A program made the position numbers and the translations under genes. A DNA stretch of 64,000 nt from Candidatus Poribacteria bacterium (GTDB lineage Bacteria > Poribacteria > WGA-4E > WGA-3G). Location: the NCBI GenBank assembly GCA_965205015.1, contig OZ242029.1, positions 2,688,001-2,752,000 of the forward strand, written 5' to 3'. This document shows, piece after piece, positions 2,174-26,158 of the stretch. Each line of letters starts with the position of its first letter. The stretch's first letter is position 1. The notes under the pieces were generated by a model. It ran no database searches, was not told the origin of the DNA, and saw only the letters and a program-made list of their open reading frames with translations.

Positions 2174-2574
2174 CTGTTCTTAAAAACCTATGTTTTTCCG
2201 AAGAAATCCATAAATTTCTAAAGGGTTCCTAACCCCTGTTACGGCACCCGTCAGTGTCTAAGCCTACCTATACCCAACTGTGCCTGCCACGTTAGCAGAA
2301 GATATAGGCGGCTTGCATATCCCAAGAAACACGGGATATGGACGAACCGTCAAAGTTAGCACCGAAATGCTAACGCCTTTTTCTCGCCCCGTACTCTATT
2401 TTCCAGGCTCATCAACGGGTATTTGAACCTGTCGGGCAGCCCTACGTGGTTCTTGTAGGTTGCATTGGTTTTTGCGACTGCCAGAGGCGGTATGTGGGAA
2501 TCGAACCCACCGAGAATGCCTACATTTACCGCGAAACATAGAAAAAACAAGAAAAACAACTATGTAGGAATGAC
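2174..2574 (-). ncRNA. ~400-nt structured non-coding element (copy E1) between SD and start codon
   Basis: Homologous to 23789..24204 (57/60 identical at the 5' end, covarying hairpins throughout); absent from the equivalent site of paralogue 2671..3453. Confidence 0.8.
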
Positions 2575-2670: not shown

Positions 2671-3453
2671 TTATTGAGATTTGATGTCTGCCCATGTCGT
2701 TGCGAGTTTGCCAGAAGGTTCAACAGGAGTGACTAAGGACGGGAGTCCCTCGTCCATCAGGGTGTTTACGTCTTCTTCTGACAGCGCGACACTAAAAAGC
2801 GCGACCTCAGAAAGCATACCGTCAAGGGTCTCTGTGGTATTGTTGGTCCAACCGCCGATGTTGGTGTCAGTATCATTCCGGGGTGCCGGTCCACCAAGAC
2901 CGCCAACAGAACCGATTTCAGCTCCGTTTTCGTAGATTTTGATGGTGTCTTCTCCATCATAAGTTGCGGTCATGTACAACCATTCATCTTTCTTGACGGT
3001 TCCTTGATTCCAAGCCCCTTTCCAGCCGCCTCGCGAGTAATATGCTTCCCAGCCGGTACCATTGCCGCTTGTCCTGAAGGCGTAATTTGCCACCGTCCCA
3101 GATGCGGGTCTTTTGCCGAGAATATGTCCAAAACCGTTCTCGGTGCTATTCACGAAAACCCATGCAGTGATTGTCCACGCCTTCTCCAGATACAAACTAT
3201 CGGAGTCAGCAATGATAACCCGATCATCTTGTCCGTTCAAACTTAGGGCAGGCCCATTCGGTCCGTCGACCCATTCTCCGCCCTGAAGTTCACCGTGATT
3301 TTCGTTTCCAGACATATCGTTGATCATATTGCCTTCGCCTTCATCGAGTAACCAAATGCCTCGTGCGGTTCCAAGGTCGATCTCCGCATAGGTCTGGACT
3401 GTGAAGGTTAGACTGATGATAAGAATCGCTAAGCGAATTATAGTGGATTTCAT
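2671..3453 (-). CDS. Secreted LamG-like domain protein (paralogue A2; intact RBS TTAGGAGGTAAAATG)
   Basis: Tandem paralogue of 1379..2167; C-terminal VEPSGKLATTWADIK. Confidence 0.85.
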   Translation of the reverse strand: MKSTIIRLAILIISLTFTVQTYAEIDLGTARGIWLLDEGEGNMINDMSGNENHGELQGGEWVDGPNGPALSLNGQDDRVIIADSDSLYLEKAWTITAWVFVNSTENGFGHILGKRPASGTVANYAFRTSGNGTGWEAYYSRGGWKGAWNQGTVKKDEWLYMTATYDGEDTIKIYENGAEIGSVGGLGGPAPRNDTDTNIGGWTNNTTETLDGMLSEVALFSVALSEEDVNTLMDEGLPSLVTPVEPSGKLATTWADIKSQ

Positions 3454-3497
3454 TTTACCTCCTAAAGGTTGAATGTGCCGTTAAGGGATGTTTTGAA

Positions 3498-3584
3498 TGG
3501 GCAGATACAAGACCTGCCCCTACAAGTGGGCAGATACAAGACCTACCCCTACAAGTGGGCAGATACAAGACCTGCCCCTACAAG
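3498..3584. repeat. 3 x 29-bp tandem palindromic repeat (GTAG-type REP-like)
   Basis: TGGGCAGATACAAGACCTGCCCCTACAAG three times head-to-tail with one mismatch in copy 2; GGGCAG/CTGCCC stem followed by CTAC. A related single copy lies near 26087-26113. Confidence 0.85.
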
Positions 3585-23481: not shown

Positions 23482-23685
23482 TTTGGCATCCTTTTCAGAA
23501 AAAATAAGATGGGGCAATCGTCGTCAATGCAGCTTCTAAAACATATTGAAGAAACACCCAAGCAAATAAACCTTGTGGGACTAAAGTGTTCTTTTCCTAC
23601 ACACCCTTAGCATATCACAGAAATTAGGGTATGTCAAAGGATTTTTATCTGTTTCCAGTAGAAAACGCGCAAATGCAAATTTTCC

Positions 23686-23788
23686 TTGACATATTTGGGT
23701 GCTTTCCTATATCATATTCCTATGCGTTAAAACGCGGGTCTCTTTTTAAGATTCGCACAGTGCGTTAATTTTGTTTTAGACATGAGGG
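23686..23788 (+). promoter_or_regulatory. Sigma70 promoter (TTGACA-17-TATCAT) and leader, duplicated upstream of the next paralogue (~25118-25220)
   Basis: TTGACA tatttgggtgctttcct ATATCA/TATCAT region; near-identical block GTTAAAACGCGGGTC...AGACATGAGG in both copies. Confidence 0.65.
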
Positions 23789-24204
23789 GTCGTTCCTAAA
23801 TAGTTGTTTTTCTTGCTTTTTCTATGTTTCGCGGTAAATGTAGGCATTTTGAGGGGTTCAAGTCCCCTCTCCCGCATCCCAGTAGCATCGTGCGATACCC
23901 AAGCACACCCGACGAAAACCACGTCGGTTCTACTGTGAGGGGTTCATACACGAGTGAGACGAACCCTGACACTGTGAGGACACTCGGAAGTAAAATAAGG
24001 CGTTAGCATTTCGGTGTTAACTTTGTGGGTTACACCATACCTCGCGCAACCTTGAGGTATGCAAGCCGCGTATCGCTTCTGACGACGTATCAGACGACAC
24101 TGGTGATATTCAGGCTTAGAGGCTGTCGAGTCTCGTCATAAGGGGGTAGGATCCCCGTAGAAATCTGTGGGTTTAAATAGAAATACATAGATTTTTACTA
24201 ACAG
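23789..24204 (+). ncRNA. ~416-nt structured non-coding element (copy E2) between SD and start codon
   Basis: Homologue of 2174..2574; absent from the duplicated leader of 25229..26023. Confidence 0.8.
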
Positions 24205-24212
24205 ATATATTC

Positions 24213-25004
24213 ATGCGTTTAATGTTGTATTTATTTGCCGTTTCACTCTTAATGGTAGGCAGTGCGCTTACCACACACGCTGTGGTCCAAGACGACGGCT
24301 TAATCCTTTATTTCAGTTTCGATGACGCAAAAAACGGAACAATTATGGATGAAACCGGTGGCGGAAATGATGGTGTCGTTGATGGCGCAGAGATTGCTAC
24401 CGACGAAGTCGTCTACGGCAAGGGATCCTTGTTATGTGATGACGGTAATGACAGTGTGTCGGTTGATACTTTTAAAGAATTAGAGGAATATACAGACAAT
24501 TCCTATCTTTTCTGGCTCAATTTCACCGACGTGAATTCCGGGGCGTGGAATCAAATCATAGCAAAAAAAGCACCCGGTTCTGACCGTTCTCCGGGGATAT
24601 GGACTTGTAACCGCGCCAGTTTGCATATCCACTATCGGTTCAATCCGGGTAACCAAGGCACACTCTGTGCGGGTCCCGAGGGAGAAGATGACGAATTTGC
24701 AGTCGGGGACTGGCATCACATTGCAGGTGTCAAAGAGGGTGACCAGTTGAAGTTCTATGTTGATGGAGAAGTCGTTGTGGAGCAGAGTGTTCCGGCGAGT
24801 CACGCGCAAGGTGCGGAGAAACTCTATATCGGTAAAACGGGTTATAACGCTGCGCTCTTCTACATTGATGACCTCTATGTCTATGACAGAGCACTCAGTG
24901 CCGATGAAGTAGAAAATATCATGGAGGGGGGGCTTCTCACGCCTGTGGAACCTCAGGACAAACTCGCCACGACGTGGGGACACCTGAAAACACGCCGTGA
25001 TTAA
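24213..25004 (+). CDS. Secreted LamG-like domain protein (paralogue B1; RBS interrupted by the element)
   Basis: Signal peptide; motifs LILYFSFD, WHHIAGV, IDDLYVYDRALS; C-terminal VEPQDKLATTWGHLK. Confidence 0.87.
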   Translation: MRLMLYLFAVSLLMVGSALTTHAVVQDDGLILYFSFDDAKNGTIMDETGGGNDGVVDGAEIATDEVVYGKGSLLCDDGNDSVSVDTFKELEEYTDNSYLFWLNFTDVNSGAWNQIIAKKAPGSDRSPGIWTCNRASLHIHYRFNPGNQGTLCAGPEGEDDEFAVGDWHHIAGVKEGDQLKFYVDGEVVVEQSVPASHAQGAEKLYIGKTGYNAALFYIDDLYVYDRALSADEVENIMEGGLLTPVEPQDKLATTWGHLKTRRD

Positions 25005-25228
25005 TTTCGTTCTTCCCTGAAACAACTTGTAGGGACGGCTTCTATGTCGTCCCACATCTATTTCCCCATTTGTGTCTGCCTATTTCTCGAATACACACCC
25101 CACCGCACATATTTTCCTTGACATCTTTAAGTTTTTTCGTGTATCATATTCTCACGAGTTAAAACGCGGGTCCTTTTTAAAGACTCACACAGTATGTTAA
25201 CTTTGTTTCAGACATGAGGAGGTTACTC

Positions 25229-26023
25229 ATGCGTTCAGTTATGTATGTACTCGCCGTTGCCCTATTAGTCATAGGCAGCGCACTCTCCACAGATGCCGCA
25301 AAGGTCGAAGATAAGGGGTTAATCCTTTACTTCAGTTTCGATGAAGCAAAAGGCGGAAATCTTGAAGATGGAACCGGTGGCGGAAATAACGGTGAAATCG
25401 TTGATGGGGCGAAGATTGTCAAGGATGAAGTTGTCCATGGCAAAGGTTCAATGTTATTTGCCAAGCCGGGGGACAGTGTGCAGGTCGATTCCTTCAAAGA
25501 ATTAGAAGATTATACGGACAACTCCTATCTCTTCTGGCTCAACTTTACGGATCCAAACTCCGGTGGCTGGGATCAGATTATTGCAAAAAAAGCTCCCGGC
25601 TCTGACCGTTCACCCGGTATATGGACCTGTAACCGTGTACCTCTGTATATCCACTACCGGTTTAATCCCGGTAACGCCGGCACGCATTGTGCAGGTCCCG
25701 ATGGAGAAAACGACACATTTGATGAGAATAAGTGGTATCACATTGCAGGGGTCAAAGAGGATGCCCAGTTGATGTTCTATGTCGATGGAAAAGAGGTTGT
25801 GAAGATAGCCGTTCCGAAGGATCACGCACAAGGTGCGGAGAAACTTTACATCGGTAAAACGGGTTATAACGCTGCGAAGTTTTACATTGACGATCTCTAC
25901 GTTTACGACAGAGCCCTGAGTGCGAAAGAGGTTGTAAACGTTATGGAGGGTGGACTACTTCCTGTTGAACCTCAAGACAAGCTCGCCTCTACGTGGGGAC
26001 AACTGAAAAGAAATCGTGACTAA
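25229..26023 (+). CDS. Secreted LamG-like domain protein (paralogue B2; intact RBS GAGGAGGTTACTCATG)
   Basis: Tandem paralogue of 24213..25004; C-terminal VEPQDKLASTWGQLK. Confidence 0.87.
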   Translation: MRSVMYVLAVALLVIGSALSTDAAKVEDKGLILYFSFDEAKGGNLEDGTGGGNNGEIVDGAKIVKDEVVHGKGSMLFAKPGDSVQVDSFKELEDYTDNSYLFWLNFTDPNSGGWDQIIAKKAPGSDRSPGIWTCNRVPLYIHYRFNPGNAGTHCAGPDGENDTFDENKWYHIAGVKEDAQLMFYVDGKEVVKIAVPKDHAQGAEKLYIGKTGYNAAKFYIDDLYVYDRALSAKEVVNVMEGGLLPVEPQDKLASTWGQLKRNRD

Positions 26024-26056: not shown

Positions 26057-26158
26057 TGAAGATTAAGAATTTAATTCGGTAATATGTGGGCAGGCACAAG
26101 ACCTGCCCTACAATGTCTTTTTTGGGATAGGATTACCGAAATATTTATTTAAACTTCA
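26057..26158. mobile_element. MITE-like insertion carrying a REP-like palindrome
   Basis: Imperfect TIRs TGAAG...TTCGGTAAT / ATTACCGAA...CTTCA. It interrupts a hairpin that is uninterrupted downstream of paralogue B1 (~25029-25060). Confidence 0.55.

Follow-up and report, generated by a model that had tools for sequence, protein, structure and literature searches.

Miniature derivatives of insertion sequences (IS) of the IS200/IS605 type, resembling MITEs (miniature inverted-repeat transposable elements) or PATEs (palindrome-associated transposable elements), are short, multi-copy elements that have no open reading frame (ORF), bear the ends of an autonomous IS and are presumably moved in trans. 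Some transposons of the IS607 type, moreover, are fused to self-splicing group I introns, and these IStrons, of which ORF-less forms also exist, insert after sites ending in G and have U as the first and G as the last base (PMC4227781; bioRxiv 10.1101/2023.11.20.567912). CsISt1, an IS607-type IStron, lies after an AG site, ends in CAG, has a first U of its own and makes no target duplication, and IStrons have been found only in Firmicutes and Fusobacteria according to the former report (PMC4227781). The omegaRNAs, i.e., the guide RNAs of TnpB, are furthermore built around a pseudoknot between the nexus stem-loop and the 3' end (bioRxiv 10.1101/2023.11.20.567912). Here, we describe E2, an element of 415 nt (positions 23790-24204, plus strand) in a 64,000-nt stretch of DNA from Candidatus Poribacteria bacterium (assembly GCA_965205015.1, contig OZ242029.1, positions 2,688,001-2,752,000; hereafter, the window). 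E2, like a second copy called E1, is quite probably a non-autonomous, ORF-less derivative of the IS607 family, which would be moved in trans, maintained by homing and left unremoved when its host gene is translated.

E2 occupies the exact gap between the Shine-Dalgarno sequence (SD) GAGGGG (23784-23789, plus strand), the host-derived insertion target directly after which it begins, and the ATG (24213) of a gene encoding a secreted LamG-domain protein (24205-25004, plus strand, including the 8-nt spacer ATATATTC; Laminin_G_3, E = 1.1e-18). In the Pfam search, Laminin_G_3 was found in both tandem paralogues, namely this filled copy and an empty one downstream. As an earlier note on this window (the original prediction) had claimed, the promoter and leader are present ahead of both paralogues (23676-23787 and 25108-25219, with 81% identity in a repeat comparison within the window). 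Each copy has a promoter-like site with 11 of 12 consensus matches on the plus strand: TTGACA-18-TATCAT before the filled gene (23686-23715), which is derived from the host, and its duplicate before the empty paralogue (25118-25147). The empty leader (25108-25231, plus strand) runs through GAGGAG (25216-25221) and GTTACTC to the ATG (25229), with SD and ATG adjoining (GAGGAGGTTACTCATG), whereas the two are ~415 nt apart in the first copy. The empty paralogue thus reads GACATGAGGAGGTTACTCATG and the filled one GACATGAGGGG + insert + ATATATTCATG, again as described before.

The second copy, E1 (2174-2573, minus strand; 400 nt; with GTCATTCCTA at 2565-2574), follows TTTAGGAG and ends 6 nt before the ATG (2167-2165) of a gene from another LamG lineage, for which an empty paralogous site, AGGAG/GTAAA ATG, is found at 3451-3470 on the minus strand (the slash marks the insertion point). 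E1 and E2 are 70.9% identical over 422 nt with E = 7.6e-40, and their likeness is therefore far above chance. The empty and filled E1 sites are TTTAGGAG/GTAAAATG and TTTAGGAG-TCATTCC...AACAG-GTAAACATG, respectively. Empty sites orthologous to that of E2 were found in close relatives (L003 and L007-L009), in which the host gene has ~90% amino-acid identity; they read ...GACATGAGGAG/GTT(T)ACTCATGCGTTTAATG, as compared with ...GACATGAGGGG-TCGTTCC...ACTAACAG-ATATATTCATGCGTTTAATG in the window. From these orthologous empty sites and the E1 pair, therefore, the element extends from T to AG, was inserted after the last G of the SD and is flanked by no target-site duplication; the GT...AG boundary of the original prediction is one base off, its G being the last G of the SD. 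The final dinucleotide of the element is also that of the target (...AGGAG/ and ...AACAG/), and such a short G-containing site sharing the last dinucleotide of the element, together with the absence of a target duplication, is as expected of IS607 elements (PMC4227781). We conclude that E2 and E1 entered as DNA directly 3' of the SD AGGAG of a LamG gene. The filled/empty pairs thus bear out a precise insertion mechanism behind the conserved termini at equivalent sites, while the evidence points to IS607-type DNA transposition instead of the branching chemistry at the RNA level that had been considered. The E2-type site is polymorphic (filled or empty) among genomes, and copies 95-98% identical to E2 reside at other loci, before different genes, in other genomes; both observations are indirect signs of mobility, which the near-identical copies suggest to be recent.

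The family to which E2 belongs became apparent from longer members with the same ends. The left end of E2, TCGTTCCTAAATAGTT...TTTTTCTTG... (23790-23830, plus strand), also precedes a tnpB gene (L093) and a serine-recombinase tnpA gene (L103). Many matches to E2 are restricted to its positions 233-416, i.e., the right end, and in seven loci (L092, L094-L096, L098, L099 and L102) this homology abuts or overlaps the 3' end of a TnpB ORF: the match opens inside the 3' end of the ORF (...DRDLNGARGIFIKTVARALTVRP and the stop codon) and extends to ...TTTTTA(GG/AG)AACAG, and a resolvase-type serine recombinase gene, tnpA, lies upstream of that tnpB. Indeed, Resolvase (E = 1.4e-15), OrfB_IS605 (E = 1.5e-27), Cas12f1-like_TNB (E = 4.7e-21) and HTH_OrfB_IS605 were recognised by Pfam in the longer members. 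E1 and E2 share both ends with autonomous elements encoding a serine-recombinase TnpA and TnpB, and are therefore ORF-less derivatives of the IS607 family; the autonomous partner that the original prediction had proposed to look for does exist.

E2 matches were found in four of the five genomes reached through the LamG loci (at most seven matches each) and in 37 of 150 sampled genomes of the phylum Poribacteria. Outside Poribacteria-type records, the element was not found by limited pattern and blastn searches, in which a 21-nt pattern had no match in genome contigs, a 20-nt pattern hit one metagenome contig (L001), a 30-nt degenerate pattern had no match in viral contigs, and blastn had none in plasmids. 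Other ORF-less variants have different middles (L097, L100 and L101), several other left ends, or a shorter right end (L105-L111). Several copies without the canonical left end, some of them also without the upstream SD, keep the middle module described below, the right end and an intact downstream gene, which is nuoD-like in L086, thioredoxin-like in L122 and L139, and orthologous to the E2 host gene in L144; the persistence of these copies counts against a need for the upstream SD or the left end. The element of L144 (in genome G092), which has lost both, is of a different subtype from E2 and carries an insertion of ~30 nt in the loop of its GUUAGCA hairpin, which suggests that the site was used repeatedly or that the element has resided there for long while its 5' part decayed. 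In L097, a right-end-like AGGAACAG directly abuts a left end at oriented position ~1240 (AGGAACAG/TTCCTAAAC) in a copy with a different middle segment, an arrangement that suggests a tandem or nested insertion or something like a circle junction. L106, a copy with the short right end, is followed within ~100 nt by sequences that, by eye, resemble a tRNA gene cluster.

The right ~180 nt of E2 (24025-24204, plus strand), homologous to the sequence that overlaps and follows the tnpB 3' end, is an RNA scaffold supported by covariation and bearing the hallmark of TnpB guide RNAs. It begins with the first (nexus) stem-loop, GUG-GGUUA-CAC (24025-24035), which is followed by further stem-loops, and the pseudoknot partner UAAC (24199-24202) is located within the TACTAAC motif at the other end. 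We aligned 37 of the 46 right-end references (29 ORF-less, 6 TnpB-linked and 2 right-end-only relics, L088 and L100), eight near-duplicates and L113 being omitted by hand. The consensus comprises 46 pairs, with 98.4% of the cells paired and compensatory changes in 25 pairs over the 37 rows; its covariation score was reached by none of 500 shuffles, and slid controls were 36-49% paired. The nexus loop GGUU(A/C) is paired to the (U/G)AAC that directly precedes the final AG of the element, the varying pair being C-G in 20 rows and A-U in 16; all of the 36 rows with letters there are paired, none is unpaired, and one has a gap. The adjacent base, which also varies (C, G or A), is likewise paired in 37/37 rows, its partner at the base of the last stem being G, C or U. 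Three forms of the last eight bases occur in the 56 distinct right ends: AGGAACAG (AGGAAC) in 27, ACTAACAG (ACTAAC) in 24 and AAGAACAG (AAGAAC), the form found in E1, in five. The original prediction had correctly noted that E2 ends in TACTAAC-AG (...TTTTTACTAACAG) and E1 does not (...TTTTTAAGAACAG), but its comparison of this motif with a spliceosomal branch point is not supported, as the motif occurs in only 24 of the 56 right ends and both of its variable bases covary with partners in the scaffold. Given the variants and their covariation, therefore, TACTAAC is one allele of a base-paired pseudoknot strand; namely, ACUAAC is that strand and not a conserved branch site.

As in the omegaRNAs (or right-end element RNAs, reRNAs) of IS605 and IS607 elements, the scaffold overlaps the 3' end of tnpB, the stop codon of which falls within the second stem-loop region, reaches the right boundary of the element, and has several stem-loops in addition to the nexus/3'-end pseudoknot, with a guide that would be provided by the flanking DNA (bioRxiv 10.1101/2023.11.20.567912). 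By analogy with that report, the first ~16-20 nt after the element would be at the guide position, and AGGAG would be the transposon-adjacent motif judging from the insertion sites. The scaffold differs from known omegaRNAs in that none of the 4227 Rfam families matched it, either at the gathering score or in permissive scans, and in that a tRNA-like/pseudoknot module of ~190 nt is fused to its 5' side in the ORF-less form. Competition of the right-end CUAAC with the adjacent GUUAGCA hairpin was considered and rejected, the hairpin type and the right-end type being uncorrelated; also rejected was a small ORF ending at the right-end stop codons, since none has a start codon. In L115, an E3-type copy, a microsatellite-like block rich in GTAACCAG/CTGGTAAC repeats is expanded inside one stem of the scaffold.

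In the structure that we propose, the middle module begins with a tRNA-like minihelix (23831-23875, plus strand) that shows covariation in all of its three stems: an acceptor stem GCGG/CCGC, a linker resembling U8-A9, a D-like hairpin AAUG-UAGG-CAUU and a T arm GAGGGG-UUCAAGU-CCCCUC. The acceptor stem is of 4-6 bp, the D and T arms are separated by 2-3 nt, and there is no anticodon arm. The acceptor, D and T arms, a T loop of UUCRANU and GG in the D loop make the minihelix tRNA-like, with compensatory changes in 6 of 14 pairs (at the D-stem pair, 25 rows have C-G and 23 have U-A) and conserved T and UAGG loops; without the anticodon arm, it is not recognised as a tRNA or tmRNA gene, neither of which was found by ARAGORN anywhere in the window. 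A three-way junction follows (23880-23935, plus strand), in which the closing stem CAGUAG/CUACUG bears two hairpins with A-rich loops of the AAAACCA type and 11 of 16 pairs have compensatory changes. An H-type pseudoknot then interleaves GGGGUUC...GAACCCU with CGAGUG...CACUCG (23939-23986, plus strand); its loops are almost invariant, as is nearly so its second stem, in which compensatory changes come from E1 only. Just 5' of the scaffold, finally, lies the hairpin GUUAGCA-UUUCGG-UGUUAAC (24002-24021, plus strand), with compensatory changes in 4/7 pairs. Removal of exact duplicates and of matches covering fewer than 150 profile positions reduced 55 module matches to 49 distinct copies, and in the alignment of these 49 rows pairing holds in 94.8% of the cells, compensatory changes occur in 27 of the 53 pairs, none of 500 shuffles reaches the observed covariation score, and slid controls are 31-43% paired. 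The module is confined to ORF-less copies; indeed, its profile had no match in 11 loci that are linked to TnpA/TnpB or have only the right or only the left end.

Known RNA families did not account for the module. At the gathering score, a search of the whole 64-kb window with the 4227 Rfam families gave nothing at the element, the single match being a PyrR binding site (RF00515, 39003-39141, minus strand; 57.3 bits against a gathering score of 54). Permissive scans (E ≤ 10 for E2 and E ≤ 1 for six related loci) gave only chance-level matches, such as mascRNA (E = 0.22), blv_FSE (0.78), Six3os1_3 (2.6), a T-arm fragment of tmRNA (0.096) and SpF43 (0.63). The best of these for the minihelix, mascRNA (RF01684; 20.1 bits, below the gathering score of 42.5), also combines an acceptor stem, a short D-like hairpin and a canonical T arm without an anticodon arm, whereas mascRNA is a eukaryotic family and the present minihelix has an acceptor of only 4-6 bp, shows no CCA and is embedded in a transposon RNA. 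The minimum free energy of E2 as a single sequence (z = -1.8) was matched by 4 of 100 shuffles and is uninformative by itself.

We then consider whether the element could be an intron. A group II intron is characterised by a 5' GUGYG and domain V. Neither a group I nor a group II signature was detected in E2 by Rfam at the gathering score or in the permissive scans just mentioned, including those of the six other loci. No catalytic core of a group I intron (P3-P9 with the G-binding P7) was recognised by covariance models, and the order of the helices supported by covariation is not that of group I. The terminal G and the U at the 5' junction agree with a group I intron or IStron but are equally predicted by the end rule of IS607 and hence do not discriminate. 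As for spliceosomal and group II introns, the boundary is U...AG, the right end has three variants, the bases of the motif are paired, and no group II match exists. The termini vary among homologues, and an AGGA resembling an SD is present inside 27 of the 56 right ends, ahead of the ATG, both of which the original prediction had itself named as arguments for a plain leader motif; the intron reading is therefore weakened, and a spliceosome-like intron is not supported in E2.

Assembled contigs of four RNA-library runs provide little to decide the matter. Spliced junctions, the search for which had been proposed, were not seen in these contigs, a weak negative because the element junctions are uncovered. 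What they cover is chiefly 23856-24176, in the middle of the element, with sequence stemming from several family members; 23642-23855 has zero cover, and runs X2, X3 and X7 show nothing beyond 24176, gaps that are uninformative, as is the higher depth at ~23856-24069, which sums several family members. The shares of 0.08-0.10 in the RNA runs likewise represent the conserved middle of family members. Excision of the element at the RNA level appears improbable to us.

A related explanation is that E2 is an IStron-like intron with a new ribozyme not of group I, in which the module and the ends would self-splice, restore the spacing between SD and ATG and make insertions harmless. IStrons, with their ORF-less forms and the G-ending target, first U and last G introduced above, set the precedent; also, the element bears a conserved, covarying RNA to which no function is assigned, is tolerated before genes of housekeeping type (nuoD-, gyrA-, lexA- and thioredoxin-like), and, in the case of E2, leaves no SD near the ATG. 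Known IStron introns, nonetheless, match the Rfam group I model (bioRxiv 10.1101/2023.11.20.567912), whereas E2 matches neither group I nor group II. The order of tRNA-like minihelix, three-way junction and H-type pseudoknot cannot, in our reading, be mapped onto P3-P4/P6-P7-P3'-P8-P7', and only 5 nt separate the two 5' strands of the pseudoknot. Copies without the left end, and hence without any 5' splice site or guide pairing, retain the module and the downstream gene; unlike in IStrons, none of the 56 right ends lies clearly inside an ORF; and the RNA contigs of the four runs contain no joints, although this last point is weak. We thus regard such an intron as unlikely.

Of the 56 distinct right ends, 46 are located 5-10 nt before the start codon of an ORF of at least 60 aa. 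L124 and L133, two of the six right ends counted as lacking a start codon, do have an ATG at 8 nt, but an in-frame TGA interrupts the ORF; with read-through of this TGA, they would qualify as well. The left-end motif has 41 matches, some nine of which are apparently due to chance (L018, L034, L040, L053, L055, L056, L088, L115 and the second match in the window); AGGAG + 2 nt precedes 26 of the 41, and AGGGG precedes two. The host genes have nuoD-, gyrA-, lexA-, thioredoxin- and lysA-like starts, as read from the N-termini alone. The family thus resides almost exclusively between SD and start codon, even in genes of housekeeping type, so that the SD appears to be the target motif. The spacers between right end and start codon contain no SD-like motif (0/46). 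One of the right-end-only relics, L088 (E2 positions 251-403), separates a gyrB-like from a gyrA-like ORF and ends 23 nt ahead of the ATG of the latter. In L110, L124 and L133, the downstream ORF resembles a heavy-metal-associated lipoprotein with an in-frame TGA at the first Cys of a GMTCxxC-type motif (...GMT(stop)G(N/S)C...), which may encode selenocysteine or mark a pseudogene.

How the host gene is translated across such an insertion might be explained by a split ribosome-binding site, in which the left-end GUUCCUAAA pairs with the right-end UUUAGGAAC and thereby brings the upstream SD beside the AUG while the RNA stays unprocessed. Indeed, GTTCCTAAA at the left end and the right-end variant TTTAGGAAC are reverse complements of each other, the SD lies 2 nt before the left-end stretch, and the ATG comes 7-12 nt after the right end. 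The pairing, however, shows no covariation, the same left end occurring with AGGAAC, ACTAAC and AAGAAC right ends; in E2 it would contain two central mismatches; the right-end bases are already paired within the scaffold; and copies lacking the left end or the SD persist. This explanation is accordingly very unlikely in our estimate, and a helix closing the left and right ends was dropped from the structure for the lack of covariation.

Alternatively, these elements might have been domesticated as leader RNAs, either as cis-regulatory RNAs of the 5' untranslated region or as guides for a TnpB-derived regulator, to control translation or transcription. Compensatory changes conserve the structure, also at a nuoD-like start shared by three genomes (L086, L087 and L120), the left end decays while the module and scaffold stay, the guide position spans the start-codon region, and TnpB-derived RNA-guided repressors are known (bioRxiv 10.1101/2023.11.30.569447). 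The host genes are, nevertheless, functionally unrelated, features that are ligand-like or linked to a regulator were not found, recent mobility is indicated by near-identical copies at separate loci, and the shared site could be explained by repeated homing instead of inheritance; we therefore do not expect domestication to be the correct account.

Returning to the IS607-derived, non-autonomous element, we propose that TnpA would move it in trans and that homing by TnpB and omegaRNA would keep it in place, with the first bases of the host gene as the guide. The element would be co-transcribed with the host gene from the host promoter, and the host gene would be translated with the element still in place, by means of signals in the right end or beside it: AGGA where the right end is AGGAACAG, or an A/U-rich single-stranded tail where it is ACUAACAG, as in E2. 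Most likely, the tRNA-like module would serve the RNA itself, through 5' processing of the RNase P type, stabilisation or assembly of the guide RNA, a role that would pertain when no tnpB is translated in cis. A bolder idea, to which we give little credence, is that the module is a new functional RNA, either a self-splicing or self-cleaving ribozyme or an RNase P-directed processing device releasing both the mature guide RNA and an mRNA fit for translation from a single transcript, that silences the phenotype of insertion between SD and start codon. If true, this would make the family a functional counterpart of IStrons that has no group I intron and targets the ribosome-binding site.

Several points weigh against the proposal that E2 is an IS607 derivative working in this way. 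The right end (ACUAACAG) and the spacer of E2 are both devoid of SD-like sequence, and the argument for translation without removal of the element is an indirect one. The omegaRNA label is drawn from position and architecture, with no matching family in Rfam, and RNase P processing, TnpB binding and transposition are proposed from the sequence. Family copies were collected by their similarity to E2, which biases the variants seen. The RNA data are assembled contigs, which are blind to ends, strand and rare spliced forms and may include DNA carry-over. The flanks of E2, moreover, no longer match the empty-site sequence, having AGGGG in place of AGGAG and ATATATTC in place of GTTTACTC, because of which E2 may be an immobile fossil copy.

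Compared with the miniature derivatives of IS200/IS605, the present elements are similarly short, ORF-less and multi-copy and have the ends of an autonomous IS, but differ in that their internal segment is a conserved, covarying RNA module and their insertions cluster at ribosome-binding sites. The group B (IS607-type) IStrons, namely BcISt1, CboIStron and CsISt1, are the closer parallel: full-length relatives encode a serine-recombinase TnpA and TnpB, the site ends in G and is not duplicated, the first base of the element is U, and the end ...CAG is that of CsISt1 (PMC4227781). ORF-less derivatives exist there too (BcISt1), with a structured RNA at the 5' side and an omegaRNA at the 3' side (bioRxiv 10.1101/2023.11.20.567912). 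Unlike in group B IStrons, no group I intron was detected here, the module is present only in ORF-less copies and not upstream of tnpA, and the sampled copies are mostly between SD and ATG, with none clearly inside an ORF. The host phylum is also different, i.e., Poribacteria instead of the Firmicutes and Fusobacteria named in PMC4227781.

IS607, TnpB with its omegaRNA, and ORF-less derivatives are thus already known, whereas two features appear to be undescribed, as judged from the literature and Rfam: that the family resides almost only between SD and start codon, and that a tRNA-like/pseudoknot module is fused to the scaffold. We found no paper describing IS607 elements that target the SD, an omegaRNA with a tRNA-like module attached, or such elements in Poribacteria, while the supplements of the IStron papers may list intron-less or ORF-less relatives. 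The reading as a spliceosome-like bacterial intron is replaced by that of an element derived from IS607/TnpB, in which the supposed branch-point motif is accounted for base by base, and this is of relevance to TnpB/omegaRNA systems and structured RNAs. If the module does process or stabilise the guide RNA or rescue translation, it would represent, alongside IStrons, a new balance between selfish and host interests.

Other features of the locus concern the host genes. A small hairpin with a T-run is conserved in the leaders of both LamG paralogues (23723-23750 and 25155-25182) and of their orthologues, and a scan marks 23723-23736 as terminator-like; this leader structure may be an attenuator. 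All four LamG paralogues of the window share the C-terminal motif PVEP(Q/S)(D/G)KLATTWGxLK (24942-25004 and 25961-26023 on the plus strand; 1394-1450 and 2674-2730 on the minus strand), which may be a lineage-specific sorting or anchoring tag, and a search with the four paralogues gave 172 related stretches; the best 80 loci come almost entirely from Poribacteria. Finally, a 29-nt unit, TGGGCAGATACAAGACCTGCCCCTACAAG, with an internal GGGCAG/CTGCCC palindrome looks like a repetitive extragenic palindromic (REP) element; three tandem copies of it are present beside the E1-type empty paralogue (3498-3584), and a fourth, 76% identical, follows directly after the E2-type empty paralogue (26087-26115).

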